From Naegleria gruberi (lineage: Eukaryota): a stretch of 64,000 nt of DNA. Below the pieces are notes generated by a model. That model ran no database searches. It was not told the DNA's origin and worked only from the letters and a program-made list of their open reading frames with translations. The position numbers and the translations under genes were made by a program. This document shows positions 3,145-38,291 of the stretch, piece by piece. The number at the start of each line of letters is the position of its first letter. Position 1 is the first letter of the stretch. The stretch is from assembly GCA_000004985.1 (NCBI GenBank), contig GG738873.1. One strand, written 5' to 3'.

Positions 3145-3510
3145 GCTGATTTTTCTATCATTGACAACACACTGTAAATAAAACAACAACGAGAAATATA
3201 TTTTACAATTTATTAATCCTAGCGCTAGAGATCTCATTGCTGGTTAAAAAGATTTTCATCACTCCTTACTCCGGGTTAGACGAATCTAATCCCAATTGGA
3301 AACTAATCTTCCTAAACTCTAAGTAAATTGACCACCAAATCCTTTGGATCCAAATGGCCAACTGCAGATGTCATCAGCTTATGACCTCAAAAGTTCCATT
3401 CAAAAAAAACCCGCCAACGGTCACTAAGAGGATAAATTGCTTGGTGCAGAAGAAGAATATATAGTTTAAATAGATTACACTCCAACTCCCTATTATTTGT
3501 TTTTATAGGA

Positions 3511-7493: not shown

Positions 7494-7660
7494 GATTAAA
7501 TCAATTAAACTTTGTTTACAAAGCAAAGATGCACTTATTTAAACTTCTAAATCTCTGATCTTCAGTTAATGCACTGATCATTTTGGATATAAGTAATTAC
7601 AACGTAGTTTAGAGGTACAGAAAATGAACAATTATTCTGAATTAGAGTAGAATTAAACCT

Positions 7661-15400: not shown

Positions 15401-16859
15401 CATCAAGGATCAACAAGTTGTGAAAAACTCTTACAAATTTTTGGATGATCAGCTTAAAGAAATTATTCATGAAATGCGACCAAAATCACAAAAAAGTCAC
15501 CAACCGATTCTAAATGATGAGAAGGATGACTTTGAAGACATTCTGGATAGTTTATCATCAGTTTGTGAAGTTATTATTGTACCCTCTGAAGATTCTGAGA
15601 CTCTGACACGCTCTCCATCAAAAGTGAAGAAAATGCTATTGGAATCATTGCCCTCATTACTTTTTGAGATGTTACACACTTTTCCAGACTCTGTAAATCA
15701 TTGGCTTTCCTTCATTGTGCAACAGACCATGTCATTTCTTAAAACTTTAGAGTGTTGTCAAATAATTTCACTCAAATTCAAAATTCATGGAGAAAAGTCT
15801 GTACAATTAACCAGTAGAAAGGTTAGCTTTGTGGACATTTCCATGTTCTTGGCCATGCAATGCGCAAACGCTTTATTTCAAACCATACGGAAGAATATTG
15901 AACCTTTTAGCAAGATTTTATTCGAAATGTGCCTCATTGTCGAAAACTTTCTCATTCCAGATAATGAAGCCAACAATGCCTCCCAAAACATTCAATCCTT
16001 GAAGGCCAAACTAGAGAAATACGCTCTCACAATCCAAGAAATACTGAAACCAGACTCTCATTACATAATTCAATCAATAAGAAATCAAGTTGGTCAAGAA
16101 GAATTCATTGATATTATCAATCATTTACAAGTGGAAAATGAGGAAGGCCTTTCCCAAATATTGGAACATGAAATATTATCCTTCACCAAACAACACATTA
16201 TACAGGAACGTTTATTGGACTATCACTTGTGTATGAATCAATTTTATGGAGAATATTTGGAAAATATGATTCCTCTTGGTGAAACTATAGAGTATTTGAA
16301 ACTTTCAATATACGAAACAAATATTCCAATGCCAAATCGTCATTATTGGAGAGAACAGCTCTTTTTGAGTTTGGATTTTGAAGAGTACGCAGAAATACTC
16401 CAACAAGTACTTGATAGCTGTCCTAAGGATTTGGATGAGAATGCAGAATCGAGTACATTAATTCTACTCCAACAATTAATTCTCGTGTTGGGTAATTATC
16501 CATTTCACAAGCTACTCACATCTACTGAGAATGATAGTATTCCCTATCTTCATCCGATTATTCATTCGTCAGTGATATCAAAAATTGCCTCTGATCCTCT
16601 CATTCAACAAGAAATTACAAACATGAAACCTTCACTCAAAGTATTGGTGGGAAAGTTATTTGATGCCTTGATTAGAAAGTGTTGTCAAGCCAAAATGGAA
16701 TTCAACATGAACTATATCAAATCTGTCAAGCACGAATTAATCAAATCCTTACATGAATCACACAATTTAGCTGAAAACTATCGTGCATCCAATATGGTTC
16801 TATCAGATAAGTTACACAATTTTCTAATTAAAAACTATTCAAGAGGAGGAGAGGAATAA
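12447..16859 (+). CDS. Large hypothetical protein; predicted exons 12447-12752, 12820-12980, 13019-16859
   Basis: The 1289-codon ORF 12990..16859 has no recognisable domain. Upstream ORF 12447..12827 and an open intermediate frame (KLNNNWGNNSNGENQEKVVGKLLMDRLSSQLIFNSAKFQSLNFLLD) can be joined through two phase-consistent introns: GTAGGT..AAAAG (67 nt) and GTAAGT..AAAG (38 nt). The 5' exon assignment is an inference. Confidence 0.45.
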
Positions 16860-19761: not shown

Positions 19762-22700
19762 CTAGTTGGTTGTTGCTTGAGGTTTTTGCATTTCAACATC
19801 TCTGGTCACTGAAACAGTTGAAGCATTGGATGCAGCCTTGTTAGAAGTACACTTCCACAAAACAATAACAACAATCAATGCAATCACCAACACTACAATA
19901 ATTGCAAAACCAACCACTGATGCAATAATTGCTCCAATATCTCCTGGAGTTAACGTAACACCAGTATTATCAGCATTCAAAGCTCCGGTTGCTTGGGCTT
20001 GCAATGGTTCGGGAATGAAGATGTGAGTTGACAATTTGGTGAACATGACTCTTTCCTTCTCAGTTTCAAAGTTTGGATAAATAGGAAGCTTAATCTTCAT
20101 AGTTTGTGGATTTTCGAGGACAACCTTGTGCTTATTAAGAGAAACACTATATGAAAGCATTGGAAGAATGATATTATTCCAGTTGGAGTGTTCTTCTTGT
20201 GTCTTGATACTGTTAATGAACTTGACAAATGAGTTTGCATTTCCAATATAGTGTTGATTGAAAGTATATTGAGCATCATTGACAAGGACACAGAGGTAAA
20301 TATTGTGTTCCTTTGTCAAATCAGAGAATTCCAATTCATCAGTATATTTTCCTTCATTATTGGTAAACTTGATTGAAACAGTAATGTTTTCATTCTTTAG
20401 TTCACTAAAGTGAATAGTTCCAGAGACTGTGTCTTGTAAGTTTCTCATGACAGCCCTAGATTCTACACGCATATAGACGGTTCCTTCCATGAGACCAGTA
20501 TTGGATTGCTTTGAGAAGCCAAAAACATTGGTTCTACTCGACTTGGAAGTGTAGAGACTTTCCAATTTGTTTTCTTCAGACTGCAACTTATAGCCAATAT
20601 AACCTTGAGTAGAATTTTCCATACCAATAACCATACCTAGACTACCGAAAGAGTTTCCTCTGTCTATGGCCAAACCAAATGGTGAAAGAGTTGAGTATTT
20701 GAATGACGTGTCAGCAGTTAAATCTAATTGATAGATTTCTAATGGTTCAATAAGGAGTTCTAATTCTGCAAATGATCCCGACACTTCAAGGTAAATAACC
20801 TTTGGAATGGAATTCAATGAGTTTCCAGTCTTTGACAAGGTGACAGCACTGGTCATGGCAATCATTGATGCAGTACTAAATGATGAGCCAGTCAACATTT
20901 TAATGGTAACATCAGCATTCTTAGGTAAGATTGGTGTTACGACAAATGAATGGAGGGATTGAGAAATTCCAGTATTTGGAACATACATGATAGCAGTTCT
21001 GGATTGAACACCATCAAAGACATGTCTAACAGTCTTACCACTGTTACCCTTATAGACTGGGAAGACAGTAAGTGTAGAATCGCTTCCAGTATAAGTGAGG
21101 AATAATGGGAATGAATTGGCTTTAACTTCCAAAAGATTTCCAACAAGAGTTCCATCATTAAGAGTGAGTTGACCAACTGATAAGCTAAATGACAAATAGT
21201 CTGGAACAATAGAAGGAATATCAATCAAAATGAGACCTGATCTAATCTTTACAGATTTTCCGAATTGAATAGAACTTCTATAATAATTGAAATTGACTGA
21301 AACTTGCTCTGTTTCTTCCTTACTGATAATGACCTTAACAATGTTAGTATTTTCAGCGACAAGATTTTGGAATGGAATTTGAACACTTTCTTGAGAAATT
21401 TCATAAGAAACAGAACCATAAGAAATTTGACATGCAACGGTAAAGCCCAAATTCAAAGTAATGCCATCATAGTAATCAAAGTTATCGGCGGCAATTGAGA
21501 TTTGTCTGGCAACAATTGTTGAATTATCAGTGATAGTTTCAACAATATTCTGCATTTCACTCACATCATAGATATAATCAATAGCCATAGTGTTTTCAAT
21601 GGATCTTCTTGACTTTTTCAAGCAGATACCACACAGTGAGCTAATGGCAGTTTCAGAAACAATTGGAAAGTCGTAAGTATAACCGTCCCATATGGTATAA
21701 TCATACAATTCAATTTCATCAATACCAACTTCACCATCAATACCCCAATAGACATTCATACCAAGTTTACAACCTGATTTTGGATTAGTTTGAGTTTTGA
21801 CATTAATGTATGGATTAATCTTAAAAATAATTGGGAATAATTCATAGAATGTAATATATAGAGTTGGTTCAAGAGTTGCCTTAGCTTGAGTTTGAAGAGA
21901 AAGATATTCACTCACTCTGAGACCACCACTAACTGATCCACTAGTTGTAGTCTTTTTATGGTTTCCCTCAATATATTCAAAACCTGCAGAGCCAGATCTT
22001 GTATAATCGCTTGTAAAGCTGACAGATGCACTGGCCTCCAAGTAGATTTTCAAACCGACTCCCATTCCAATTGCCATCTCAACAGGCAAAGGTCCAACAG
22101 CAAAGGCAGCAGTGTAAAAGTCCTTCTTCTTCATCAACTCAAATTCTCTTTCATATTTGCCTGTGGCCGTAACCTTCAAAGTTGGAAGTGTAACTCTCAA
22201 GGCATAAAAACCAGTACCTCTAGCAGTGTCTAGAATTTCCCATGGCATGTCAGTTTCAATGTATATATAATAACCAGCATAGAAACTAAAGAAACAATTG
22301 GTACATTCAAAGGTAAGGAATGAATAGGACATTGTAACTGACGATTGATCATAGGTAGGAATATTATTTGTGTAGAGAATCTTTCCCTTGCTATCTCTTT
22401 TCACATTCCAACCAATTTCAAATGCCTTATCATTGCTAGCAGAGCCAGAGAATCTTCCATTCTTGGCAACATAACCTAGTGGTCTACTCTTTAATAATTT
22501 GAGTTTTGAAAAGACTTGGAGGAGGGATAATTTACCAGTTTCTAATTGGAAATAAGTAATGCCATTCTCCTTGTTGTAAATCAACTCTGATTTGGTGACT
22601 AATCTGTAGAGAACTTTTTCATCAGTCTCTGCTTGATCATTGAGAGAGTGATCATAACAGGCAAAACTCTTCTTGCTTGAAACAAGCAAATTTCCAACAG

Positions 22701-23118
22701 CAAGATGATTCTTCATCATTTCAACATGATTTGGAACAGAGGCATCTGGTCTAATATACAAAATATTCCTAGTACAACCAATATCCATCACATATGGGTG
22801 ATAGTCAAGATTGTAGGTATCAAAGGCTAAAACAGCATCATACATGAATTGCTCAGAGCTTGGGGTTTCTTCAGTGTAACGAGCATTCCAAGGATTCTTA
22901 GAGGTAAAACGTTGCTGGGCCTTATTAAGATAGGGAATACTTTGAGGATTTCTCTTCGAAATAGATGGTAATGTTCTACCATTCTTGATTCTGAAGAGGA
23001 AATAATCTGAGGGTGTTTCAAAGTTTGGTCGTGTTGTCGTGCTTTCAGCTATTAAGAATCCCACTAAAAAACAAGTTATCCACACAAAGAGGATGGATTT
23101 TAGTAGAAGCCTAATCAT
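19762..23118 (-). CDS. Large type-I membrane glycoprotein, hypothetical
   Basis: Complete 1118-aa ORF with an N-terminal signal peptide (MIRLLLKSILFVWITCFLVGFLIAES). A single C-terminal TM segment (IGAIIASVVGFAIIVVLVIALIVVIVLW) is followed by a short tail. It is Ser/Thr/Asn-rich. No known domain was recognised. Confidence 0.55.
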   Translation of the reverse strand: MIRLLLKSILFVWITCFLVGFLIAESTTTRPNFETPSDYFLFRIKNGRTLPSISKRNPQSIPYLNKAQQRFTSKNPWNARYTEETPSSEQFMYDAVLAFDTYNLDYHPYVMDIGCTRNILYIRPDASVPNHVEMMKNHLAVGNLLVSSKKSFACYDHSLNDQAETDEKVLYRLVTKSELIYNKENGITYFQLETGKLSLLQVFSKLKLLKSRPLGYVAKNGRFSGSASNDKAFEIGWNVKRDSKGKILYTNNIPTYDQSSVTMSYSFLTFECTNCFFSFYAGYYIYIETDMPWEILDTARGTGFYALRVTLPTLKVTATGKYEREFELMKKKDFYTAAFAVGPLPVEMAIGMGVGLKIYLEASASVSFTSDYTRSGSAGFEYIEGNHKKTTTSGSVSGGLRVSEYLSLQTQAKATLEPTLYITFYELFPIIFKINPYINVKTQTNPKSGCKLGMNVYWGIDGEVGIDEIELYDYTIWDGYTYDFPIVSETAISSLCGICLKKSRRSIENTMAIDYIYDVSEMQNIVETITDNSTIVARQISIAADNFDYYDGITLNLGFTVACQISYGSVSYEISQESVQIPFQNLVAENTNIVKVIISKEETEQVSVNFNYYRSSIQFGKSVKIRSGLILIDIPSIVPDYLSFSLSVGQLTLNDGTLVGNLLEVKANSFPLFLTYTGSDSTLTVFPVYKGNSGKTVRHVFDGVQSRTAIMYVPNTGISQSLHSFVVTPILPKNADVTIKMLTGSSFSTASMIAMTSAVTLSKTGNSLNSIPKVIYLEVSGSFAELELLIEPLEIYQLDLTADTSFKYSTLSPFGLAIDRGNSFGSLGMVIGMENSTQGYIGYKLQSEENKLESLYTSKSSRTNVFGFSKQSNTGLMEGTVYMRVESRAVMRNLQDTVSGTIHFSELKNENITVSIKFTNNEGKYTDELEFSDLTKEHNIYLCVLVNDAQYTFNQHYIGNANSFVKFINSIKTQEEHSNWNNIILPMLSYSVSLNKHKVVLENPQTMKIKLPIYPNFETEKERVMFTKLSTHIFIPEPLQAQATGALNADNTGVTLTPGDIGAIIASVVGFAIIVVLVIALIVVIVLWKCTSNKAASNASTVSVTRDVEMQKPQATTN

Positions 23119-23332: not shown

Positions 23333-26300
23333 TTAGTGAAGGAAAAGAGTAACTATAAGTACAAACAATAATGCTATAATATTACAATAGTAAGACAAGC
23401 TAGCTTGAGAGATGATTGTTTTCTGCTTGACCAAAGTTGTGAGTGTGTAGGCACCAGTACTGCTAATATCTGCAACAACAGAATCTTTAACAAAGGTTCC
23501 AACAGTACATCCAGAATCTGTACTGAACACATCCTTGCTATCGTCATACTTTTTACAGATGAGCTCTGTATTTTGAGGAAGGGAAGTTTCATTCTTCAAA
23601 GTTTGCATTCTCAATTTTACAAGGTTGGTATTTGAAAGCTTGAATGGAGAATAGCTATTTTCTGGAACAATGTTAAACTCAATTACCTTGGTGAACATAT
23701 CAAAGTCAGAGCCGAGAGAGAATTTAGAGACAGCATTTCTCTTGTCATAGATCATAAATCTTAAACTGGCGGATGCAACGTTTGGAATCAACTTGGAGAA
23801 TGTAGAGGAGAGTGTGATGGTATTTGAATTGTAGAGAATGTCATAGAAATTATTCATACTTGGGGAGGAGAGCTTTCTACTATATCCAACAACTCCATTA
23901 CCAATCACAACAGAGGCAGGCATATCTGGAGCATTATTCTTTGTTGAGGCTGCTACAATATTAGTGTAAGTAACGCCTAAATTCTTTAAATCATCATCAG
24001 TGAACAAATTCAGAGATCTTCTACGAGTTGATACATATCCAGAAAGAGCATTAGTGGCAGCAATAACACTAGAAATAGTGTTTAAGTCAAAGTTAACACT
24101 TTTAACAGAGGCTACAGTCTCAGTCGTAGATGCAAGTGTGGAAATGATAAGAGAGGTTGTCTTATCTGTAATAAAACCTCCAGTGACAGCTGGAATAGCA
24201 TTTGAAATAACAGAAGCTGTTGAGATTGCAGAGTCGCTTGTTTCCGGAACGAGACTACTTTGAGAGGATTTGGTGGAGATTACAGCCGAAACTAAATTAT
24301 TGGCTGCTTGTGAAATCTTCTCCTTTTGAGTTGCATCCAGAGAAGAGCTTGTTACAGATCCAATTACCAATAATGCATTTGATGCATCAGTGGAGGAGAT
24401 GGTGGCAACTTGTGAGCTGATAGAGCTCAAAACTTTGAATGTTTGCTCGACTGACAAGTTTTCCACTTTAACCTGCAGGATAGATTCTGTTGAGGCACCT
24501 TTGGCATCTGAAACAACAACCTTAACTGGCACCTTGTAAGAATTTGAAGAAGATCCAGAGGCCAGTCTCACACGAATTGATTTCAAATCAACAACTTTTT
24601 CCGATAGAGGTTTCCAATAGGTGCCATCATTGAAGAAGTATTGATAAGAAAGAGGGGCTTGAGGATCATTCCATCCGTTACCACACTTTAAATCAAATTC
24701 GTCCAAAGAGTAGCCACTTTGTGGGAAAACCTCAAATACACCTCTAGTTGGTGGGAAATTGACAGTGAAAGAGATTGATGCAGAACCATTCTTATTTCCA
24801 TCAGTAATCAACAAATCAAGAGAAATTGTTAAACCTGGAACAAGACTACTCTTTGGAATGATAATATAACTGAGACTTGTCTCCAAATTTGTTAAATCAA
24901 GGTTAGAAGATGTCCATTTGTATGATGGGTTGGATAAGGAATCCAAAAGGTTAGAGTTGAAAATTACATCCTGACTGCTGTCAACTGCCGATAAGTCAAT
25001 ACTTTGAGAAATACCTTGAGGCTTGGCAGAAATAGAAGCCTTGATAATCTTATCCTTTGAATCTGATAAAATTGTAACCAATAACACCTTTTGAATGCTT
25101 CTTGAACCTTTAGAGTAGGTTGCAGTGAAAGAATATTTTCCTGGCTGAAGGAGTTGACTGAATGGAGAACTCACAGAACCACAACCAGTATTGGTGGAAA
25201 TCTTAAAACATGCAATTGTGAGTGAATCAGAATCAGAGGTTGCACTTGGATCATTCTTAACAGCAGAAAACGAAACAAGTTCGTCGTAACCTTGAGAGAA
25301 GTCGGTTACATTGAAAGATAATTCTAATGGTTGACTAATTGCCTTTACAAGGAAAATTACACTAGTTTCAAGAGCTTGATCGGCAGTAACGGTTGCCTTA
25401 AAATAATAATTTCCTTCCTTCTTAATTGAAGTATAGCCAGAGCCAAAAATGAGCATTCTATTACTTGTGGAAAGTTTGAGAGAGGTGTCTACAGAGTTCA
25501 ACTCAACTGAGTAGCTAACTTTCAGCAAGCTAGAATTTCCGCTGTAACATGATGGGAAAGTGATAGATGGGACAATAATGGAAGAGCCTCCAATTAACAC
25601 TTGAACTTCTTCTGGAATATTTATGAATGGAACAACTGTAGTAACAACAGAGAAGGACAGAGTTTGATTGGAAGAATAACCAAATTGATTTGTAACCTTA
25701 ACTACAACTGAGTAACTTCCAACATTGAGTGCATTTGCTTGTATTGTAACAACAGATGTTTTAAGAGAATTGATCATATTGTTCAAAGTGGCAGAAGATG
25801 ATGACCAAGAATAGGTCAAAGCTCTTCTATCAGAAGATGAAGATGAGGAAGCGTCAAAAGATACCTTATCACATGTTGAAACAATGGACTTATCAGACTT
25901 CAATACAGCATCTGGCGGATTAGAAACAAGTGAACCAGTGGAAACAATCACACTAACAAAATTAGTTTTCTTTAGCAAATCAGAATAGAACATTAAGGTA
26001 CTTCCAGGAACAATTGTTGTACTTGAGCCTAAAATTATTTGGAATGAATTTTCAGAACTGGTATAAAGACAAGAAGCATCACTACCACCAATCAATGGAA
26101 GACTCTCTGCTGCAATGAAATAAGAGCATTCAAACTTTGTACTTATTGGAGAGTAAACTGTACCAGTAATTACATCTCCGTTCTTATTGAAGGAGAAAGA
26201 AGAAACACTCACAGAATAGTCACAATTTTCTCCATACCAACCAGTTTGACAAGATGAACAAGTTTTTCCAGAGAAATGACCAGAGCAAACACATTCTCCC

Positions 26301-28360
26301 ATAGAATTACAATTTCCATGAGATGAGCAATTACGGGCAGGAGTACAAACATTATCGCAATTAGATCCAAAATATCCTGCTGTACAGTTTGTGCAAAACT
26401 CGCCCGAAAAATTATCAGAGCAAATACAATTCTTATTGCTGCCACAAGTTCCTCTTCCATTACATGTTTTTTCAGCACTGCATGCTGCTTCTGTGCAATT
26501 AACCCCTGAAAAGCTTGGATTACATTCAGTACATTGTGAATTTCCATTCCAGTTGGAAAGGCAAGAGCAAGTATCTACAGCAGTGCAAGAACCATGGCCT
26601 CCACAAACGCTAGATGAACTCTTGCTGATTCCATAGCATTTGAATGAATTGCATGTTTCACCTTCGAATCCAGTTTTACATTTACATTGATTTGGAGAAA
26701 TACATTCACCTTGACCACTGCAAACATTCTTATCACTTGATGGAATATCAAAACACAGAGGAACTGCACAATTAGAGCCATAATAACCAAATACACAAAC
26801 ACATCCAGAATCTGTGCAATTTCCTTTAGAGTTGCAAACACTAGAATTATCAGAGCTAATCCCATTACACACATATTTTGGAGCTGATGGGGATGAATTA
26901 TTGTTTGAGTTAGTGCTATTTTGTGGAATTGTTGAATTTTCATAAGTTGAGCTGTTTGTTATTACTGTGCTGTTGTTGACAGTCGTATTAGAGTTATTAG
27001 AGCTATTGTATACATTAGTATTATTTTGAATTACTGTTGAGTTATCTTGGATTGTATTGTTCCCATTGGTTGTGCTATTGGAAGAATTTGTGCTATTAGA
27101 TGTAGAATTTCCTGATGAGGTATTGGTAGAATTGTCAATGCTTGTATTATTCCAAGTGGTACTATTGTCTGAAACTACAGGATTGACTGGATTAGTGGTA
27201 TTGCTGTTATCTGAAACGTTGTGATGTACAGTGTTGTTATTAGAAATATCAGTATTGTTGGTCAATGTACCATTTCCATTTAAGGTACTATTATTGGTGG
27301 TTGCAGAGTTGTTTGAGGAAGTCAAACATGTGCTACCCGAGAATCCATCATTACAGACACAAGTATTAAAATCAGTACATGCCCCATTTCCATTACACAC
27401 TTGGCTACTAGTACTTGCTACCCCAAAACATGAGGTCACATTACAAGAAGCTCCTGTAAACTTGGAAACTTTCAAACCCATTCCTGATACATCAAAGGAA
27501 AGAGGGCCACCAACTGCAATAATAATACTCCATTGCTTGATGAAAATACCAACCTTGTCATAAACTGTTGTTGTTGGAACTGTTCCATAGTGAATCCAAT
27601 CAGTTCCAGTGGCAGTCTTGTAATAAAACTTGTAACCTAATGGATTCTTTCTAACAAGAAGAGGTGCATGAGTTTGAGAAGATGAAAATGTGAAGGGACC
27701 ATCTGAATAGTGATTAATCAAATCTTCAGGGAGAACATCACAATACTTTTCATTATTGACAGCTATTGTCAACTTTGATGTATCGGTTGGACCACTTCCA
27801 ATGAAATAGTTGGCATTATTTGGATTGAGGCTATTATTTCTCCATACAACCACACCAATATGAGTTAGGCCTCCTCTAGCTTTCATGTCAATAACAGCTT
27901 CATAGGACCATTCATTGAAAATGCTTCCATCTACATTTCTTGGTACATCATTAAGGATTAATTCACCTTCCATTCTGTTACACCACCACATATCTTGTGC
28001 CTTATTCTTAGTTGAAATCGATATGTTTGGATAATTTCCTTGAATCCTATTCATTTCATAACTATTGAACAATGTGTTTGGGCTTGGATCATAGAATCTC
28101 ACTCCCCAACCAGAATCAAAGTTTTGAAGATAATCGACAGCTTGAGATGAATTTGTTCCCATACAAGAACAAACATCTTGAGAAATACACGATCCCCTTC
28201 CTGAGCAAACACTTGAATTGGAGGCTGCAATACCATAACATGAAATCTCTGTCGATTCAACAACCTTAATATTATTGAATATAATAAAGCCAAGAAGGAT
28301 ATTTAGCAAGGTCACGAAGTTAAATAATAACCTAAAAGAACCAGTTATTCTTCCCTTCAT
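23333..28360 (-). CDS. Giant surface glycoprotein with tenascin-type EGF-like repeats, an N-glycan-rich low-complexity region, repeated Ig/PKD-like modules and a C-terminal hydrophobic anchor
   Basis: Complete 1675-aa ORF with a signal peptide. It carries multiple 'C..S...VCSG.G.C....C.C..G..G..C' modules (CYGIAASNSSVCSGRGSC, CNGNGACTDFNTCVCNDGFSGSTC, CSGQGECISPNQCKCKTGFEGETC and others). A ~150-aa N/S/T-rich tract (~26880-27320) holds dozens of N-x-S/T sequons. A C-terminal TM/anchor segment YYCNIIALLFVLIVTLFLH is present. Confidence 0.65.
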   Translation of the reverse strand: MKGRITGSFRLLFNFVTLLNILLGFIIFNNIKVVESTEISCYGIAASNSSVCSGRGSCISQDVCSCMGTNSSQAVDYLQNFDSGWGVRFYDPSPNTLFNSYEMNRIQGNYPNISISTKNKAQDMWWCNRMEGELILNDVPRNVDGSIFNEWSYEAVIDMKARGGLTHIGVVVWRNNSLNPNNANYFIGSGPTDTSKLTIAVNNEKYCDVLPEDLINHYSDGPFTFSSSQTHAPLLVRKNPLGYKFYYKTATGTDWIHYGTVPTTTVYDKVGIFIKQWSIIIAVGGPLSFDVSGMGLKVSKFTGASCNVTSCFGVASTSSQVCNGNGACTDFNTCVCNDGFSGSTCLTSSNNSATTNNSTLNGNGTLTNNTDISNNNTVHHNVSDNSNTTNPVNPVVSDNSTTWNNTSIDNSTNTSSGNSTSNSTNSSNSTTNGNNTIQDNSTVIQNNTNVYNSSNNSNTTVNNSTVITNSSTYENSTIPQNSTNSNNNSSPSAPKYVCNGISSDNSSVCNSKGNCTDSGCVCVFGYYGSNCAVPLCFDIPSSDKNVCSGQGECISPNQCKCKTGFEGETCNSFKCYGISKSSSSVCGGHGSCTAVDTCSCLSNWNGNSQCTECNPSFSGVNCTEAACSAEKTCNGRGTCGSNKNCICSDNFSGEFCTNCTAGYFGSNCDNVCTPARNCSSHGNCNSMGECVCSGHFSGKTCSSCQTGWYGENCDYSVSVSSFSFNKNGDVITGTVYSPISTKFECSYFIAAESLPLIGGSDASCLYTSSENSFQIILGSSTTIVPGSTLMFYSDLLKKTNFVSVIVSTGSLVSNPPDAVLKSDKSIVSTCDKVSFDASSSSSSDRRALTYSWSSSSATLNNMINSLKTSVVTIQANALNVGSYSVVVKVTNQFGYSSNQTLSFSVVTTVVPFINIPEEVQVLIGGSSIIVPSITFPSCYSGNSSLLKVSYSVELNSVDTSLKLSTSNRMLIFGSGYTSIKKEGNYYFKATVTADQALETSVIFLVKAISQPLELSFNVTDFSQGYDELVSFSAVKNDPSATSDSDSLTIACFKISTNTGCGSVSSPFSQLLQPGKYSFTATYSKGSRSIQKVLLVTILSDSKDKIIKASISAKPQGISQSIDLSAVDSSQDVIFNSNLLDSLSNPSYKWTSSNLDLTNLETSLSYIIIPKSSLVPGLTISLDLLITDGNKNGSASISFTVNFPPTRGVFEVFPQSGYSLDEFDLKCGNGWNDPQAPLSYQYFFNDGTYWKPLSEKVVDLKSIRVRLASGSSSNSYKVPVKVVVSDAKGASTESILQVKVENLSVEQTFKVLSSISSQVATISSTDASNALLVIGSVTSSSLDATQKEKISQAANNLVSAVISTKSSQSSLVPETSDSAISTASVISNAIPAVTGGFITDKTTSLIISTLASTTETVASVKSVNFDLNTISSVIAATNALSGYVSTRRRSLNLFTDDDLKNLGVTYTNIVAASTKNNAPDMPASVVIGNGVVGYSRKLSSPSMNNFYDILYNSNTITLSSTFSKLIPNVASASLRFMIYDKRNAVSKFSLGSDFDMFTKVIEFNIVPENSYSPFKLSNTNLVKLRMQTLKNETSLPQNTELICKKYDDSKDVFSTDSGCTVGTFVKDSVVADISSTGAYTLTTLVKQKTIISQASLSYYCNIIALLFVLIVTLFLH

Positions 28361-29514: not shown

Positions 29515-30672
29515 TTACAATGAATATTGACTACAGATTGGCTCACAAAAATCAATAAATGATTTTTGAAGGATCTTATTATTGGCAACTGCACTTGGAT
29601 TCACTGGACGGCAATCATCAAAATAGCTACCAGAGATGGATTTAACATCTGGGGAGCATGCCAAATGAATAGTGTTTTGAGATCCTTGTTTAACATTCTT
29701 GAAGAATAATAATTCAGGAATTCCCAAAAGCAAATTAATATAGAGTGGGGCCTCCCTTGTAAGCTGACTGGAAATGGCTCCAGGATGACAACAATTAATG
29801 GTTACCTTACAATTAGGAGTATTCTTAATTCTCTCATTAAAGTGATAGGTTTGATAAATGTTGAACAATTTGGACATGCCATATTGCTTGTTGGTATCTA
29901 GAAGGTTCATTGTGGAAAATCTTTTGGTTGGTTTGATTACTCGATCTCCCATTGTGTAGGTATTTTGTTCCTTATCGAAAAAGTCAGCATCACTAACAAA
30001 TGAATGAGCCAATGAGGCAACAATTACAATTCTTGCACCATTTGGATTGCTATTCAAATTGTTCCACAATAGCTCAATCAGTAAGTGATGTCCCAAGGCA
30101 TTTGATTGAAACATTTCCTCATATCCTTGCTTGGAAAATCTCAATCCAAGTGCAACACATCCAGCATTATTAATCAACAAATCCAAAACCTTTCCCATTT
30201 GAAGAAATTCCTTAGCACATTCTCTAACACTTTCCAAATCATTGAGATCCAATCGGATGAAATTCAATGAACCTCCTTCTAATCTCTTCTCTCCAACAGT
30301 GTCTTGAATTTGTCTGATTACTTGTTTGGTTTTTTCTGCATTTCTACATGCCAAGTAGACACAAGCTCCCTGTCTGTACAATACTTGTGCAGTGTAAACT
30401 CCGATACCAGAAGTTGCTCCACTGTGATCATCAAATGATCATACATTATAATAACTGTTATTAAATAATCAATATATTACTGTATAAACTCACGTAATCA
30501 TAACAAGCTTTCCTCTCATGTCAACTTGTTCACCATTTGTTGAAACACCATTCACTACAAAATATTTAAGAGCAGAGTAGGAGGCCAACAGGGCAAGTGA
30601 TGAACTGAGCGCGATAGGATGTTGAGTCCACAATGATTGAATGGAGGAGGTGAGAGTTTCAAGTAGGGACAT
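29515..30672 (-). CDS. Short-chain dehydrogenase/reductase (retinol dehydrogenase-like); 2 exons: 30672-30494, 30421-29515
   Basis: Exon 1 ends ..GKLVMIT and exon 2 begins GATSGIGVYTAQVL, which rebuilds the Rossmann TGxxxGIG motif across a 72-nt GTGAGT..CAG intron. The NNAG motif and the catalytic YGMSK (YxxxK) are present. An N-terminal hydrophobic anchor is present. Confidence 0.8.
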
Positions 30673-30767
30673 TTTTTTCTGATTGGTTGACTTGCTATTG
30701 CGCTAGCATTAATATTGAGGACTATTATTGGCAAAATATGATATCGGTAGTGGTCAATAGTAAAATT

Positions 30768-30859
30768 TGATGAGAGTGGGATTTGAACCCACGCCCTTGC
30801 GGAACACGGCATTAAATCATACCTTAACGTGTCGTCTTAGACCACTCGACCATCTCACC
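30768..30859 (-). tRNA. tRNA-Leu(AAG), class II, with a 12-nt intron
   Basis: Minus-strand sequence GGTGAGATGGTCGAGTGGTCTAAGACGACACGTTAAGG[TATGATTTAATG]CCGTGTTCCGCAAGGGCGTGGGTTCAAATCCCACTCTCATCA. The 7-bp acceptor stem has one G-U pair. The D-arm is of Leu/Ser type. The anticodon loop UUAAGG(C) gives anticodon AAG, and the intron sits after position 37. A long variable arm and the T-arm GTGGGTTCAAATCCCAC follow, with discriminator A and no encoded CCA. Confidence 0.8.
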
Positions 30860-31016
30860 CTTATTGATGTGGATTAAGGCACTTTTATCGTTCACAAATC
30901 ACTAAATTTATTTTTAATTATTCCTTTCTTAATTTTTCTAATTATTAATTATTCCCTTTCTTATTTATTTTATTAATTATTTAATTAATGTTATAAATTT
31001 TATTAATTTTAAAAAA

Positions 31017-32054
31017 ATGGGTCAAGGATCAAGTCAATCAACACCTCGTCTCGAAGACATTCTCACCTCTCCCTCACAATGGTTCTACTTTCGTGATTAT
31101 CAGGCTCATGCAACATGTTCTGAAAAGATTCGCCTCTATAAAGAGTTGAACAAACTTGTTGATTTACGAAGTGGTGTTGATGGTGATGAAGAGTTTCATG
31201 ATGATGGTTCCGACGCACATAAAACATATCATAACAAATCTGTAAATAATTTATCATCGGAGGAGAAGAGAAAAAGTAATCAAAAATATGAACAATTGAA
31301 GGATTTAATGTTAGAGAATGCATGTGTAATGTGTCAGACATTTTCGGGAAGGATTGAGGAAGTGGAGAATGAAAATAAGTTGAGAGAATGTTTTGGTGAT
31401 GAATTGGTGGATTGGAGTCAAATGAAGAAGAGGAATAATGAGGAAAAATTTAATGAAGAGGAACAATTGTTGAGTTTACCAATTTTACCTTTGGATTATG
31501 ATAGATTATTATATTGTTTTCAAAGTAATAATGCAACGATACCAATGTTTGATGCATTGGCCAAGCACAAATCATTCCTGACACAGAGAGGATCTTTACG
31601 AGAATTATTTCCACACATTACCAATAATTTGAGAGAACAAAGGCCTATTGCTGAATTATTTTCGATTAAGAATACACCAGAACATAACTTTTCATTGTTG
31701 AAAGACTTGTCTAATAAGCAAGCTTCTAAAGAATTTCAAGTTTTAGATAGTTGTATCAACAAGTCAGAAGCTCAGGTCAATCCAAACAGTACAAGCTGTT
31801 TGGGTGAAGCTTTAATTTATTCACATGCAGTCACACCAAAATTTTGCCAGAGACAAATTAGAGATTGTCTCGAGCGAAAGATTCCTTCGTTCGTTGTCAA
31901 TGGTTTGGATGATGATGAAGCTTGGGAACACTTGTCAGTCATTGACTATACACAATGTTTGTTGAATAGGTCTAAGAGTATGACCTTAAATGAGGCTCAT
32001 GAATGTTTCGATAATGTGATGGATTTTATGGGTGAACAAATATTGAAAGAGTAA
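31017..32054 (+). CDS. Hypothetical protein with an N-myristoylation-type start (MGQGSS)
   Basis: Complete 345-aa ORF. The ATG is preceded by a long A/T run. No domain recognised. Confidence 0.45.
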   Translation: MGQGSSQSTPRLEDILTSPSQWFYFRDYQAHATCSEKIRLYKELNKLVDLRSGVDGDEEFHDDGSDAHKTYHNKSVNNLSSEEKRKSNQKYEQLKDLMLENACVMCQTFSGRIEEVENENKLRECFGDELVDWSQMKKRNNEEKFNEEEQLLSLPILPLDYDRLLYCFQSNNATIPMFDALAKHKSFLTQRGSLRELFPHITNNLREQRPIAELFSIKNTPEHNFSLLKDLSNKQASKEFQVLDSCINKSEAQVNPNSTSCLGEALIYSHAVTPKFCQRQIRDCLERKIPSFVVNGLDDDEAWEHLSVIDYTQCLLNRSKSMTLNEAHECFDNVMDFMGEQILKE

Positions 32055-32092
32055 ATATTAATTTCACAAACATTTCCATCACTAAATGTAGT

Positions 32093-35000
32093 TTATTTGA
32101 ATAATTGAACAGTTGTCATTTCTCTGGTGGCTTGAACTTGCTTGATAATTCTAAATTCCTCTGTCAAAACAAATCTAGAATAGGTATCCATCAAATTGTA
32201 AACAATATCCGTCATTAGATCCATAATAACCTCATTGGTGGCAGTCTTTAACTCGGCAACTTCGCTTCCATTGAGAGTATTAATGTTAGTATTGAGAAGA
32301 GTATTGTGGAGAATCAAGTACTTTCTTCTCGTGATTGAATTGATATTGACAGACATTTCAGAAGAGGAATCAATGTGAGTTTTGAAAAGTTCATCCATCT
32401 CTGTAACAACCCTGTCCCATTCCCCAATATTCGCATTTGAAGGAGAAATGACATCTGAAAAATCTTGCTTGAATTTTTCCAAACGAATCCAAATAATATA
32501 ATTCTCCAAACTCATCTCAGTTTTGGTGTATTGACGGAATAATTTCAACAAGTACTTGTTTTGTTTGAGAGTCAAAACCTCAAATTTTTCATCAAACTCT
32601 TGGAAGGCATTGGCTTGCTTTTTAGTGAACCATCCTCCCTTAGTAAATTCAGTCTTGAGAGCCCAAACAACAACAAATCCACCAAATGCAATAATCAAAC
32701 AAATAGTCATTAAAGTTTCAAACAAGAATATAACACTATCCATCATGTCAACTATGTCGTTATTGGTAGAGTCGCCAGAGAATCTCAAACTCAAAGTTGA
32801 AAAACCAACCAAGTAAGAAACTATAAAGAAAAGCATTGCTGCCAAATAAAAGATAACCTCCGTTCTGAACATTAGTACATCATTTGAAATGAATGTTTTG
32901 AAAATGGATCCTAGTAATCTACCTCCTTTTGCAAGCTCCTGAGAAAAATTATTCTTGACGAGTGCTTGTTGGGAATTAGCAGTTGAAGAATCGATTACTA
33001 ATGAATTCATTTCCTCAGCAATATCAACAACTTCATCTGACATTTGTTTGTTTGACTTTTCGAGAACTAGATCAGTAACATAAATAGCAATAATCACCAT
33101 AGTCATTATTATCAACAAGATGAAAATAGATACCGTTGAAGCAGTTGAGAATTGAGCAGTGGTAAGTGAGCTATCTCCTCTTAAAATAACAAAAATGGAA
33201 AAGTAGATGAGAAAAAGTACTCCAGTAATTATGCTAGTAACGACAAGGACAGTCTGCTTTTTCAAAATATTCAGATACTTGACCATGGAATCCTTCTTGT
33301 TTGTTTCTATTGCTTTCATCATCCACTCATAAAAATACCTGTGAACTAGATATCTGAGTGACATTATCATGTAACACCAAATAGCAGCAGCTCTCATCGA
33401 TGTAGAAATGACAGTGCAAATAGAAACCATTAAATCCAATCTCAATGAAGGGAAATATGAGTAATGGAGCAGGATTGATTTGGAAAATATTCCAACAGCT
33501 AAATTTTCAATAAACAGAGAGGCAAGAGCCAAATGTGGGGTAATGTATCTGGACTTGACAGGTTGTTTCTTCCTTAATATAATTAACAACGCAAATATTA
33601 TGCCAATAACTACAAGAAATATGGAAGAAATGGCAATATTAGCAGTGGAGAGAGAATCATGAATACTCCTATCATTCCTCTTATAGGGAGCTTCTGAGAA
33701 ATCGATAAATGCTGAGAACCTTGTTGTGTGATCACAATAGCATGTCACCGTTCCATTACTGTATGAGGTACTACAACCGTTTTGAAGCCATTTCATTTCA
33801 GTTTCATTCCAATATCTACAGACATAGGTCTTGACAATCTCTGGGTTCGAAGAGTTACTGTTAAGTGTGGAATTGATTAAGGTTTCATTGATAGTCCCCT
33901 CATCAATGGTAAAAGTTAGGGTGATATTCTCAGATAGATTGTTGAGTGGAACATAGGTACCACTTACTAGGGTCTTGAATTGTAAAATTTTGGCACCAGG
34001 AAAAGAAATAGATTGATCAGTGAAAAACTGTTCAGGAGAGGATTCAAATCGAACAATGCCAAAACTAGTAGCAGAAGGTCCCAACGCAGCACCAATAGTA
34101 GAGGGAATAGCCACACTGTGAGAGGCATCAATAGGGCTACTTCCTCTATTCTCATCTAAAACAACGAGTACTACAAAGTTTTTCGTTTCAACTTTGACTG
34201 GTTCTTTTTTTCCCTCATTCTTATTGGAGATTGCAATAGCAGAGAGTGAGCTATCAATGGCCTTTTGCATTGTTTTCAATTCGAGTGACAATTCCACAAG
34301 GTTAGAGGCAATTAGTAATAAATTAGTGGAAATATTGTTGATGATGATGGTAGCCGAATGTAATTTTTTCAAAGTGTCTGAGAAATCATTCACTGTTTTG
34401 GAAATAGCTTCCTTGCCAGCTTCTGTGAGATAGTTAGTATAGACAGAGTCGGTAATAACCAATAGAGTTTGGGTTAAAAAGATACTCTGTTCAGTGGTAA
34501 TGTTTGAGGTCTTGTTTGTGAGGGTACTAGCTATAACCTCAATCAGTTCTGTCTTGTTGGTTACATTTTGTAGATTGTTAGCAATTTGATTAATAGATCC
34601 AATATCTAGCTCTTTAATCCTACTTGGATTATCCGTTACTTGTTTTAGAGAGAAAACTGATATTGACCTTGATTGAGAACTATTACCAACAATGATATCA
34701 TAGTTTCTATCAATAATTGTGGCTTCAATTGAATATTCTCCAACAGTTAGAAGTGGCAATTTCCAGGTTAGAGAGGTTGTGTTTTCAGAGTAGAAATAAT
34801 TGCCATTCCTAATTGTAAATGTTATAATCAAGGATTCCTTCTTATTGTAATAGGTTGTAAAATTAGAGTCTGCAAAGCTTAAAATAACATGAGTGTTGTT
34901 GGACTGAGTATCCAACATGGAGCTATCTGTCAATGAGAGGATTACGTTCTCACCAGCTATTAACAGTGCTCCACAATCAAAACCATCGCTATTAGAATTG

Positions 35001-35860
35001 CAACTACAAACATCTAAAATCTGGCATTGGCCCTTTCCTTGACAGACATCTGAGCTATTGGACAATATCGAAAAACAACTAGTCAACCCACAATTCGATC
35101 CAAAATGTCCTGCAGAACATGAACAAACATCTGGAAGTGTGCAATTACCTCTCCCAGAACAAACCAATGAGCTCTGATAATCCACAGAGAAACACGAATA
35201 GGATGAACAATTAGAATCATAATATTCACTCTGACAAGTACATGAACCATTGGCCGTACAATTTCCACGTCCAGAACAAACAAGAGGTGATTCCTGTGTC
35301 AATGAATCACAAACATACAAGTTATTGCACTTATTTCCATAATAACCAACACTACATGAACAATTGTTCTTGGAAATGCACTTTCCATGACCAGAACATA
35401 CAGAAGAACTTGATGAAGACTGTCCATAGCATTTGTAATTATCACCATCATCGTCGTCATCGCCTTCATCGTCATCACTCTCGTCTGATATCGAACGGGA
35501 GTGGTGGGTCTTGTCTCGATAAATTATGTTGTTGTTGATGGTGGGTATTTCTTGGCCCTGTACCAAAATTATCCAATTAGAATTGTGTTTGAGAAACCTT
35601 CTCGGTGATGGCAACACATTATTATTATTATTCGAAATTAATAGATTCCAATAATTACTATTCGAAAATACATCCGATGAAATTAGCAAAAAGCAAACAG
35701 ACACTATGAAAATTAGAACAACACATAAGTTCCTCCTCGCCGAATAATTCCAACATAATTTTAAAACTGATGATATGTAATTCTCCTTCCGCATACATGA
35801 TAATTTCCCCTCCAAAATACAACAAGCATCATCTTCCGTATTACTTCTAACAAGTAGCAT
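32093..35860 (-). CDS. Adhesion-GPCR-like receptor: signal/anchor, four tenascin-type EGF modules, extracellular region, GPS motif (~33694-33826), 7TM domain (~32830-33640), C-terminal RGS domain (~32140-32610)
   Basis: EGF modules include CYGQSSSSSSVCSGHGKCISKNNCSCSVGYYGNKC and three more. The GPS signature is C-x2-W-x6-W-x3-GC-x10-C-x-C-x-HTT-x-F, seen as VCRYWNETEMKWLQNGCSTSYSNGTVTCYCDHTTRFSAFIDF, immediately ahead of seven hydrophobic helices. The C-terminus has RGS signature blocks: FRQYTKTEMSLENYIIWIRLEKFK, EMSVNINSITRR and IMDLMTDIVYNLMDTYSRFVLTEEF. Single 1255-codon ORF. The true start is probably MRKENY ahead of the hydrophobic LCVVLIFIVSVCFLLISS. Confidence 0.7.
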   Translation of the reverse strand: MLLVRSNTEDDACCILEGKLSCMRKENYISSVLKLCWNYSARRNLCVVLIFIVSVCFLLISSDVFSNSNYWNLLISNNNNNVLPSPRRFLKHNSNWIILVQGQEIPTINNNIIYRDKTHHSRSISDESDDDEGDDDDDGDNYKCYGQSSSSSSVCSGHGKCISKNNCSCSVGYYGNKCNNLYVCDSLTQESPLVCSGRGNCTANGSCTCQSEYYDSNCSSYSCFSVDYQSSLVCSGRGNCTLPDVCSCSAGHFGSNCGLTSCFSILSNSSDVCQGKGQCQILDVCSCNSNSDGFDCGALLIAGENVILSLTDSSMLDTQSNNTHVILSFADSNFTTYYNKKESLIITFTIRNGNYFYSENTTSLTWKLPLLTVGEYSIEATIIDRNYDIIVGNSSQSRSISVFSLKQVTDNPSRIKELDIGSINQIANNLQNVTNKTELIEVIASTLTNKTSNITTEQSIFLTQTLLVITDSVYTNYLTEAGKEAISKTVNDFSDTLKKLHSATIIINNISTNLLLIASNLVELSLELKTMQKAIDSSLSAIAISNKNEGKKEPVKVETKNFVVLVVLDENRGSSPIDASHSVAIPSTIGAALGPSATSFGIVRFESSPEQFFTDQSISFPGAKILQFKTLVSGTYVPLNNLSENITLTFTIDEGTINETLINSTLNSNSSNPEIVKTYVCRYWNETEMKWLQNGCSTSYSNGTVTCYCDHTTRFSAFIDFSEAPYKRNDRSIHDSLSTANIAISSIFLVVIGIIFALLIILRKKQPVKSRYITPHLALASLFIENLAVGIFSKSILLHYSYFPSLRLDLMVSICTVISTSMRAAAIWCYMIMSLRYLVHRYFYEWMMKAIETNKKDSMVKYLNILKKQTVLVVTSIITGVLFLIYFSIFVILRGDSSLTTAQFSTASTVSIFILLIIMTMVIIAIYVTDLVLEKSNKQMSDEVVDIAEEMNSLVIDSSTANSQQALVKNNFSQELAKGGRLLGSIFKTFISNDVLMFRTEVIFYLAAMLFFIVSYLVGFSTLSLRFSGDSTNNDIVDMMDSVIFLFETLMTICLIIAFGGFVVVWALKTEFTKGGWFTKKQANAFQEFDEKFEVLTLKQNKYLLKLFRQYTKTEMSLENYIIWIRLEKFKQDFSDVISPSNANIGEWDRVVTEMDELFKTHIDSSSEMSVNINSITRRKYLILHNTLLNTNINTLNGSEVAELKTATNEVIMDLMTDIVYNLMDTYSRFVLTEEFRIIKQVQATREMTTVQLFK

Positions 35861-36148
35861 GATGATATTTTCTACTTGGGAATGCGTGATAATTATTTTG
35901 ATATTGTTTTTTTTAGTGAACTTGAAAAATTATGGAAAGGAAAACCAAGGATGGATCTAGAAAGCGTAGTGACATTGATAACTGCAGTAAATTGTTTCAT
36001 AACATGACTCTGATATTATTGATATTATTAATAGAATTTTGATATCTTGAAATTGGCCTATCTGATTTGAAATTTTCAAAACTTGCATTCTTGGTCTTGT
36101 ACATTATCTTCAACAGAATACAACTGTCATAAGTCAAACATCAAAAAA

Positions 36149-38291
36149 ATGGGCAATGAACAATCAGCACCAACTTCATCAGTACCAGCAGGTACAGAAT
36201 TAGCTACAATGCCAATTCGTCGTAACACAACTAACTATGCTTCCACAGCTGGCAGCTCATCCATCACAGCCTCCTCCACAAACAACAACCTTCTCAACAA
36301 TAGTACTACATCCAACAATCACGATCCTAACAATAATTCAAATAATCAAAATAATGGAAATTTCCTCTCCCTCCTCACCACCTCCCAAACATTAATTTAT
36401 GGCTATGCAAACAATGCCTCCCATCAAGTTGATCCATTCCGATCCAATGTAAAACAATTGGCCGATTTAATCAGACCAAATGCTCTTCAACTCGCTCCTC
36501 AGGAAGGCTTCTTTCATATCAGCGTCATGTTGGATGAAATCTGCAAGACTCACGAAGACATTTTAAATAACTATCGTAAATATTTGCCACTGGTAGAGTT
36601 TGCATTGAGCGGGAAAACTGAGAACAATGTATTGTTTGGATCAGGTGGTGGTGGGAGTATTTTTGGCGCCACTTCTTCATCTGCCTCCTCTTCAAAGGAA
36701 GCCTTTGAAAAATTGTTATTCTCTCTAAAAAATCACATTAACAATACGAGGAATGCTATTGAGGGATTGGTTGCTGCTTCGGAGAGTTATGAGAGGAGAA
36801 GTTTAAAGGCTAGTAATCAATCGTCGCATTCTCAGACTGCTTCAATGGTTAATTTGTTACCAACTTCGGGAATTACTTCGTTTGATTGGTCGACAATTGC
36901 TAATAAGAAGGTAAATTTTGATTTTAATTGATGATTAATAATTTTAATAATTATTCAATAATAATATATATATTATATTATACAAATTTAATACAAAATT
37001 TTGGAATTGTTATTGAATGGATAACATACAAATATTAAATTATATTGATTGGAATAATTATTTAATATTTTAGAAATATTTTCAAATTAAGGATGAAATT
37101 GAAATATTGCTAACATACCACTTGGAAGAATTACGTGGATATAAAGAAATTGTGGAAAAGGCTAATGCAAAAGGAGATACAGAAGTTAATGTAGCAACTA
37201 TAATTTCTGATGAATTTGCTGCAGAATTTTGGAAAACTAATTGTGGAGCTAATGTATTTTCTATTGATAAGGAAGCATTTATTGACTTGTTGGATGCTAA
37301 CTTTCAGGGTTGGTCTAAACGTGTAAAAAAAACATGGGTTGAGGAGATATCAGAGCTCATAGATCCAACCTGTGACAGTGTTGTTTCCATTGTAGATTTC
37401 AAAACTGTTTTACAATGGTTCGGTCCTTTCACAATTTCCTTCTTTACACCTATGGACAGTTTTTTAGCCCAGAAACATTTTTGGGGAAGTATTTCATCCA
37501 TGGAAGCTCAACACTTACTTGATTCCCAGGAGCCTGGTACTTTCCTCATTAGATTTTCTGAAATTGAAGCTGGTGCTTTTTCTATAAGTGTTGTAGAACA
37601 AGAGAGTGATGACAATTTAGGTCTCTCAGGTGGTGAATCTACCATTTTCAAGCAAACTTCTCACTTTATATTGAGAAGGAAAAAGGAAGACCAAAAATTC
37701 CTCTTTATTCTTTGTGAAAATGATACTGAATTCAAATGTGAAACTGTTGATCAATTAATCAAACAATATCGTTTGACATTTAAATATCCATTCACTGATG
37801 AAACTCAAAAATTAGAAGTTAAACAACAAGAGGACGAGTTGGACTTTTTCAATTTTATGAAATCAACAGCTGCTCTCAGTGCTCTTGACGATGATGAAGA
37901 AAACTCAAACTTTGTAAAATTCAGAGGAAGAATTGTTGACAAGTCCATTGCCAAGCAAAATGAAAAAGTTCCTCCAAACTCTACCAAAAAGACACCAACT
38001 TCAGCCACACTCAGCACTCCAAAACCATCTGGTCACAATAGAGTTCTCTCAACAGCTAGTAGTAGTGGAAATTCTTCTCCAGTACCAAATACTCCAACTA
38101 CCATTGCTGTAGCTTCACCGACAACCACTCCTTCTACCACTCTTCCATCTGATAAGAATATCACTACACCACAACCAGCAGCATCATCATCATCTGCAAC
38201 AGTTAGTAGTAGTGCCAATTCTACCACCAGTAGTAGTAGTACACCATCAATAGATGAAAATAATATTGCTCTTGAGGAAAAGAAGCAATAA
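36149..38291 (+). CDS. Cbl-type TKB-domain protein (4-helix bundle + EF-hand + variant SH2) with no RING finger and a Ser/Thr-rich tail; 2 exons: 36149-36910, 37074-38291
   Basis: N-terminus MGNEQSAP fits a myristoylation consensus. The EF-hand/SH2 stretch (IISDEFAAEFWKTNCGANVFSI...DPTCDSVVSIVDFKTVLQWFGPF...FWGSISSMEAQHLLDSQEPGTFLIRFSEIEAGAFSISVV) aligns by eye with the c-Cbl TKB region (ITKADAAEFWRKAFG...[23 protein letters not shown]...[20 protein letters not shown]). No C3HC4 pattern follows. The intron is a 163-nt AT-rich GTAAAT..TTTAG. Confidence 0.65.

Follow-up and report, generated by a model that had tools for sequence, protein, structure and literature searches.

NAEGRDRAFT_49726, which lies on the minus strand at positions 32093..35860 of a 64,000-nucleotide stretch of Naegleria gruberi nuclear DNA (assembly GCA_000004985.1, contig GG738873.1; hereafter the window), is a real single-exon receptor gene that joins EGF repeats, a GAIN domain with its GPS motif, seven membrane helices and an RGS box; chance matches are excluded for the EGF, GPS, seven-transmembrane (7TM) and RGS features. 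We propose, with a probability of roughly three in four, that its product is a receptor-tethered GTPase-activating protein (GAP) for G-alpha subunits, regulated by its ectodomain, in the adhesion-receptor-like sub-form of the 7TM RGS family of Naegleria, a heterolobosean. The N-terminal ~720 amino acids (aa), comprising four EGF modules, a beta-rich module and the GAIN domain with the GPS, would be extracellular, and the C-terminal RGS box would lie in the cytoplasm beside membrane-anchored G-alpha subunits. There it would act as a GAP for one or more of the many G-alpha subunits of Naegleria, some of which exchange nucleotide spontaneously, and would hold them in the GDP state. A ligand, a surface or a force acting on the ectodomain may alter the conformation of the 7TM domain, or may affect where the receptor is localised or whether it is endocytosed, and engagement of this kind would relieve or enhance the GAP action, as proposed for Arabidopsis AtRGS1. 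The proposal also parallels the model put forward for the 7TM RGS proteins of N. fowleri (Nf). All features of the gene described below are on the minus strand.

Gene, domain order and family

The 1255-codon frame (32093..35860; 1255 aa plus stop) begins with ATG and contains no internal stop. Its product was 100% identical over the full length to XP_002676267.1 / EFC43523.1 / UniProt D2VI36, so the publicly available gene model coincides with this intron-less single exon; the database entry is named 'predicted protein [Naegleria gruberi]' and carries no further annotation. The domain order is signal anchor, four EGF modules, beta-rich module, GAIN domain with GPS, 7TM domain with a G-protein-coupled receptor (GPCR) fold, and RGS box. 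Near the N-terminus, a hydrophobic segment (35657..35746; aa 39-68) with a Kyte-Doolittle peak of 2.68 is a putative signal peptide or signal anchor. It is followed by four tandem six-cysteine EGF modules of the tenascin/teneurin type (34973..35431; aa 144-296), recognised from both cysteine spacing and Pfam: the cysteines of the consecutive modules span aa 144-178, 184-218, 223-257 and 262-296 with identical spacing in all four, and the Pfam scan of the whole protein matched EGF_2 (E 7.9e-11), EGF_Teneurin (E 5.4e-6) and EGF_TEN. The next ectodomain module (34661..34963; aa 300-400) is beta-rich, with strands in the first, low-confidence AlphaFold2 (AF2) model (pLDDT, the predicted local distance difference test, of 55-75); a Pfam scan of this sub-sequence returned no match. 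An NCBIfam scan of the protein likewise gave no match, as expected for a eukaryotic protein.

The remaining two thirds of the polypeptide were modelled from an alignment of family members. The first AF2 run, with a multiple sequence alignment (MSA) of four sequences, reached a pLDDT of 50.8 and was unusable; the second, with a 41-sequence family MSA, gave a model of aa 400-1255 with a mean pLDDT of 82.9. Along the chain, a helical bundle (aa 405-549) is followed in this model by a beta sandwich (aa 555-723), then by seven long helices (aa 728-1077) and last by a compact helical domain (aa 1094-1254). Foldseek comparison with the PDB ranked inactive full-length CD97 (GAIN plus 7TM) first, with E 1.1e-8 over 568 aligned columns, followed by the GAIN domains of BAI3, CELSR1 and BAI2 at ~1e-7 and then by catalytic RGS domains. 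The model (m123b84997112) was also matched over ~330 columns, presumably in the GAIN region, to 8j07_k3 (E 1.5e-6) and 9fqr_Hn (4.6e-6), which are chains from structures of the 96-nm repeat of axonemal doublet microtubules, human and bovine.

True relatives were scarce in word-indexed homologue searches, which brought up mainly EGF-only proteins, and the family was revealed by an exhaustive HMMER search with a GPS-7TM-RGS profile against 1.84 billion cluster representatives (clusters at 50% identity). At E ≤ 1e-3 this search gave 1276 matches, and tightening the limit to E ≤ 1e-30 left 87 clusters; most of the strong matches, which are to proteins 1000-2700 aa long, extend from the GPS to where the RGS box ends. 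Ten sampled family members came from N. gruberi, N. fowleri, N. lovaniensis or metagenomes, and ten weaker, mostly shorter 7TM-RGS relatives came from metagenomes (7/10), N. fowleri (one) and Acrasis kona (one). N. gruberi itself contributes four members that could be named.

This family corresponds to one that is already described. Bosch, Jeck & Siderovski (J Biol Chem 2022; PMC9283941) reported 28 7TM-RGS proteins in N. fowleri, several of which carry EGF-like repeats, lectin domains and GPS motifs. Peptides encoded by the primers of their Table S1 identified Nf 7TM RGS1 as the FDP41_005437 cluster (P0030/P0172), which our GPS-7TM-RGS profile retrieved at E 5.9e-132, and the profile also retrieved a protein with the tail encoded by the reverse primer of Nf 7TM RGS2/3. 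NAEGRDRAFT_49726 has the 7TM domain and C-terminal RGS box of this family and is homologous to its published N. fowleri members. The Nf proteins are of the same family by sequence and share the layout of a complex ectodomain with EGF and GPS, a 7TM domain and a C-terminal RGS; in comparison with them, the N. gruberi protein is individually uncharacterised, and its own N. fowleri orthologue, FDP41_001840, is devoid of EGF repeats. The adhesion-receptor-like 7TM-RGS architecture of the pathogen N. fowleri is thus also present, in multiple copies, in N. gruberi, a non-pathogenic laboratory model in which it could be studied safely.

The reading of the locus as an artefact of annotation or assembly, in which a neighbouring receptor gene and an RGS gene run together as one open reading frame (ORF), has a negligible likelihood, and no evidence was found in its favour. 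Neither a stop nor a frame change nor a separate gene was found in the sequence between the end of the seventh transmembrane (TM) helix (aa 1077) and the start of the RGS box (aa 1094). The co-linear layout recurred in the 87 clusters at 50% identity, where it mostly extends from GPS to RGS, and it was seen in three named Naegleria species, one instance being a syntenic orthologue on independent assemblies. Moreover, Nf 7TM RGS genes were amplified from genomic DNA, and their expression was reported from RNA-seq (PMC9283941). The two-gene reading was rejected on the family-wide co-linearity.

A preliminary description of this stretch, made from the letters alone, had read here a single 1255-codon frame with four tenascin-type EGF modules, a GPS motif ahead of seven hydrophobic helices, and a C-terminal RGS domain recognised from three sequence blocks. 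All of these were recovered, including the three blocks it quoted, and the presence of EGF, GPS, 7TM and RGS in one polypeptide is supported by profile hidden Markov models, a confident model, fold searches and a large co-linear family. Among the Pfam families that it named, EGF, GPS and RGS were matched and 7tm_2 was not; the RGS fold that it anticipated for the tail was found, and so were relatives with a co-linear layout, namely the 87 clusters and the syntenic orthologue FDP41_001840 with its GPS-7TM-RGS layout. Its suggestion that such a combination was previously unknown does not stand, since the combination had been described for N. fowleri in PMC9283941.

The RGS box and the proposed GAP function

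The RGS box (32099..32581; aa 1094-1254) was identified by Pfam, by profile search of the PDB, by Foldseek and by BLASTP to RGS4. The C-terminal 195 aa scored 28.6 bits against Pfam RGS PF00615 (E 2.1e-6; cut-off 23.9), one paralogue scored 37.9 bits, and a three-sequence GPS-7TM-RGS profile matched RGS2, RGS5 and RGS8 in the PDB at E ~4e-6. In the AF2 model the region forms the compact helical domain noted above, for which Foldseek returned RGS8, RGS16, RGS1 and RGS4 with target-normalised TM-scores of 0.67-0.73. The box is placed inside the cell because the number of preceding helices is odd and the loops on the cytoplasmic side are positively charged.

Comparison with human RGS4 provided residue-level detail. 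The RGS4 sequence was aligned by BLASTP, with its residue numbering checked, and the residues at the G-alpha-i1 interface in the RGS4-Gi-alpha-1 complex are S85, E87, N88, N128, L159, D163 and R167. These aligned with S1117, E1119, N1120, N1172, L1223, D1225 and R1229, respectively, so that all seven contact residues are conserved in NAEGRDRAFT_49726. E1115, E1119, N1120 and N1172 were invariant in 41/41 aligned family members, and the family as a whole shows the RGS signatures E.S.EN, VNI and NL.DT.SRF. With a profile match on the tail, a helical fold and the G-alpha contact residues, the domain resembles the catalytic R4 type and, judged from its residues, looks catalytically competent.

A different function for the tail would be that of a non-catalytic scaffold, as in GRK, axin and RGS-homology (RH) domains, in which case the protein would bind G-alpha or other partners as an adhesion or matrix receptor, with no GAP action. 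The marginal Pfam RGS score of the full-length protein, the insertion, compared with RGS4, of ~30 residues between alpha-6 and alpha-7, and the loss of GAP function in some RGS domains (de Mendoza 2014) are consistent with such a role. Against it, every RGS4 interface residue is kept, including the equivalent of Asn128, and those matching E87, N88 and N128 do not vary within the family; structurally, the nearest neighbours are catalytic RGS domains of the R4 type and not RH domains; and in N. fowleri the paralogous domains are active as GAPs, with an activity that is sensitive to the switch-I G-to-S mutation (PMC9283941). We therefore consider a purely scaffolding tail very unlikely.

Biochemical data on these paralogues favour the GAP reading. 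Four Nf RGS domains were purified, and with the domains of Nf 7TM RGS2-4 GTP was hydrolysed faster by several Nf G-alpha subunits, self-activating ones among them; AlF4- transition-state binding was seen for RGS2 and RGS4, and none was detected for RGS3 (PMC9283941). The switch-I G-to-S mutation abolished the GAP activity on both G-alpha subunits tested (PMC9283941).

Several points weigh against a receptor-tethered, ectodomain-regulated GAP. The activity was measured on N. fowleri paralogues, and for NAEGRDRAFT_49726 itself we infer it, along with self-cleavage at the GPS and regulation by the ectodomain; the published primers are absent from the N. fowleri locus L001, so FDP41_001840 was not among the four proteins tested. 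Pfam RGS scored 23.1 bits on the full-length protein, 0.8 below the gathering cut-off of 23.9. Control of the RGS domain by the ectodomain would be an additional step beyond GAP action, and the GPS carries H-T|T in place of the usual H-L|T/S. The regulatory mechanism is debated even for AtRGS1.

Among known systems, AtRGS1 and the 7TM-RGS proteins of plants and Trichomonas are alike in that seven TM helices are followed by a cytoplasmic catalytic RGS, the likeness being one of domain layout; receptor-GAPs of this kind are known from Urano 2012 and Bradford 2013, as these are cited in PMC3971589 and PMC9283941. An ectodomain is all but absent from AtRGS1, in contrast to the ~720 extracellular residues with EGF and GAIN/GPS of NAEGRDRAFT_49726. 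In the case of the class C orphan GPCRs GPR158/GPR179 with RGS7-Gbeta5, GPR158 recruits a separate RGS polypeptide non-covalently, whereas the RGS of NAEGRDRAFT_49726 is a fusion in cis; a relationship to GPR158/GPR179 was not detected in the sequence.

The GAIN/GPS half and the class of the 7TM domain

The ectodomain ends in a GAIN domain whose two subdomains were both recovered. Subdomain A (34214..34648; aa 405-549) is helical (AF2 helices 6-150 of the model), and Foldseek matched it to the GAIN domains of BAI3, BAI2 and CELSR1 and to CD97 at E 1e-8 to 4e-7. Subdomain B (33692..34198; aa 555-723) is a beta sandwich that includes the GPS and a last, Stachel-like strand, RFSAFIDFSE. The GPS motif (33716..33820; aa 681-715) reads CRYWNETEMKWLQNGCSTSYSNGTVTCYCDHTTRF, exactly as in the preliminary description, and its cysteine and tryptophan pattern aligns; Pfam GPS PF01825 scored 33.9 bits on the sub-sequence (gathering cut-off 22.5; E 4.5e-8), a match that went unreported in the hmmscan of the whole protein. 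The family signature is C..W..W..GC..CxCxHTT|xFxxF, and the residues C, W, G, C, C, C, H, T and F were invariant across 41 members. The three-sequence GPS-7TM-RGS profile also matched ADGRF1 in the PDB across the GPS, Stachel and TM1 at E 3.8e-6. The GAIN domain with the GPS sits directly N-terminal to TM1, one of the features of adhesion GPCRs. This half of the receptor is structurally bona fide, having passed every test applied to it.

The putative scissile bond lies in the triplet H-T-T (33722..33730; aa 711-713), at H711-T712|T713. Comparison of ~80 family clusters revealed H-T-T in nearly all and H-A-T in one; adhesion GPCRs retrieved by the same search carry H-L-T, and the metazoan GPS consensus has Leu at P1 (H-L|T/S). 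Across the family both the catalytic His at -2 and the Thr nucleophile at +1 are retained without exception, and P1 is Thr nearly throughout. Self-cleavage is uncertain because Thr replaces the usual Leu at P1. TRFSAFIDF, which follows the cleavage site, resembles the Stachel consensus T-x-F-A-x-L-M, the family form being T-x-F-(S/T/A)-x-F; in the AF2 model RFSAFIDFSE is the last GAIN beta strand and comes directly after H711-T712|T713.

These features raise the alternative of a genuine G-protein-activating adhesion GPCR. Here the strand T713-RFSAFIDF would be a tethered agonist after cleavage or dissociation of the GAIN domain, the 7TM domain would be a guanine nucleotide exchange factor (GEF) for G-alpha, and the fused RGS would sharpen or end the receptor's own signal as a built-in kinetic scaffold. 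The Stachel-like strand and the invariant His and Thr are compatible with this reading. On the other side stand the differences from metazoan adhesion GPCRs such as CD97/ADGRE5, BAI/ADGRB, latrophilin/ADGRL and ADGRG6: these have a 7tm_2 domain and Leu at P1, whereas NAEGRDRAFT_49726 has a 7TM domain that is not detectably 7tm_2, Thr at P1, and a tail that is an RGS GAP domain, with an output opposite to that of a GEF. We regard this alternative as unlikely.

The 7TM domain itself (32630..33679; aa 728-1077) showed five strong and two weaker hydrophobic segments after the GPS, and the AF2 model has seven helices, at aa 728-761, 774-800, 808-852, 858-895, 901-936, 998-1026 and 1032-1077. The third intracellular loop (ICL3; aa 937-997) is long and partly disordered in the model. 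Loop charges, read from the sequence, follow the positive-inside pattern, with the N-terminus extracellular and the RGS cytoplasmic. Within the family, the first intracellular loop (ICL1) has a strongly conserved signature, RKxQPVKSRxxTPY (aa 762-775 in NAEGRDRAFT_49726), and other 7TM motifs are (N/D)DxLxFRxE before TM6 and FGG in TM7; the entry for the ICL1/TM6/TM7 family motifs in our feature list is 33440..33481 (aa 794-807 region). The ICL1, pre-TM6 and TM7 motifs are among the most conserved positions of the family, above most of the TM core. Docking of G-alpha or of the RGS box is one possible role for them.

Assignment of this domain to class B2 was pursued by several routes, and no sequence relation to 7tm_2 (PF00002) was found with Pfam or with profile comparisons. 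A Pfam scan of 18 7TM crops contained no 7tm_2 match; a 7TM-only profile showed no similarity to class B2 or to any solved GPCR among all PDB sequences; and hhalign revealed no class B2 relationship of the 7TM domain, either against a Danionella adhesion GPCR or, in local mode, against an ad hoc and crude set of 11 GPS-bearing sequences. Class B2 membership could not be shown by the hhalign, PDB profile or Pfam attempts. As far as sequence comparison reaches, the bundle is of the GPCR fold with no detectable class B2 (7tm_2) affiliation. We describe NAEGRDRAFT_49726 as adhesion-GPCR-like, and not as a demonstrable class B2 member, because its 7TM domain lacks detectable similarity to 7tm_2.

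A bona fide GAIN/GPS half on a 7TM domain of the GPCR fold with no detectable class B2 affiliation sharpens a point that the published description had left open. That study noted GPS 'motifs'; it is not known to have modelled the GAIN fold or to have examined the class of the 7TM domain, as was done here. Beyond this point, NAEGRDRAFT_49726 is an expected paralogue of the described family. The family offers a natural test case for whether GAIN/Stachel regulation operates on a different 7TM scaffold, and whether it controls a GAP output.

A bolder form of such regulation would be that Heterolobosea coupled GAIN/GPS to a non-class-B2 7TM domain, independently or from a very ancient ancestor, and that H-T|T with the T-x-F-x-x-F strand is a working autoproteolytic tethered ligand whose exposure turns the fused RGS GAP either on or off, in what would be an 'inverse adhesion GPCR'. 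Such exposure might come, for instance, from the mechanical loss of the N-terminal fragment with its EGF modules. If true, a tethered-ligand or mechanosensing mechanism would control the deactivation of G proteins, not their activation, and GAIN-7TM coupling would be placed outside Amorphea. We hold this to be rather unlikely, and prefer the receptor-tethered GAP whose ectodomain may act on the 7TM domain or on receptor localisation.

The locus in two Naegleria species and neighbouring genes

The syntenic N. fowleri orthologue FDP41_001840 is a 1421-aa 'GPS domain-containing protein' with the layout GPS-7TM-RGS and with 35-38% identity to NAEGRDRAFT_49726 over that part. Its tblastn match was restricted to aa 286-1255 of the N. 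gruberi protein. Both genes have the same short-chain dehydrogenase (SDR) gene on one side and the same 282-aa and SH2 genes on the other: comparison of 29515..38291 of the window (G+C content of the window, ~34%) with 1546..10155 of the N. fowleri locus L001 revealed that the SDR, 282-aa and SH2 genes are collinear, and that the receptor gene is inverted relative to these conserved flanks between the two species. A counterpart of the 345-aa ORF at 31017..32054 (+) was not found in L001. This suggests a local rearrangement linked to ectodomain remodelling at the receptor locus; the ectodomain of the family is evidently undergoing reshuffling.

The product of a 1675-aa ORF at 23333..28360 (-), ~4 kb from the receptor gene, contains EGF_2, DSL (Delta/Serrate ligand; 26.3 bits) and REJ (E 1e-30) domains, together with a signal-like segment at the N-terminus and one TM anchor at the C-terminus; a GPS-like CxCxH motif was not found in it. 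These domains make it a heterolobosean surface protein of the polycystin-1/REJ-like kind. The ORFs at 12990..16859 (+) (1289 aa) and 19762..23118 (-) (1118 aa) had no Pfam match at E ≤ 1e-3; the latter carries a single TM helix near its C-terminus as well as a signal-like N-terminal segment. On the other side of the receptor gene, a 394-aa ORF at 37107..38291 (+) encodes a Cbl_N2 EF-hand-like domain (27.5 bits) followed by SH2 (42 bits), a Cbl TKB-like module, and this Cbl_N2-SH2 gene also adjoins the orthologous receptor gene in N. fowleri, with 55% identity.

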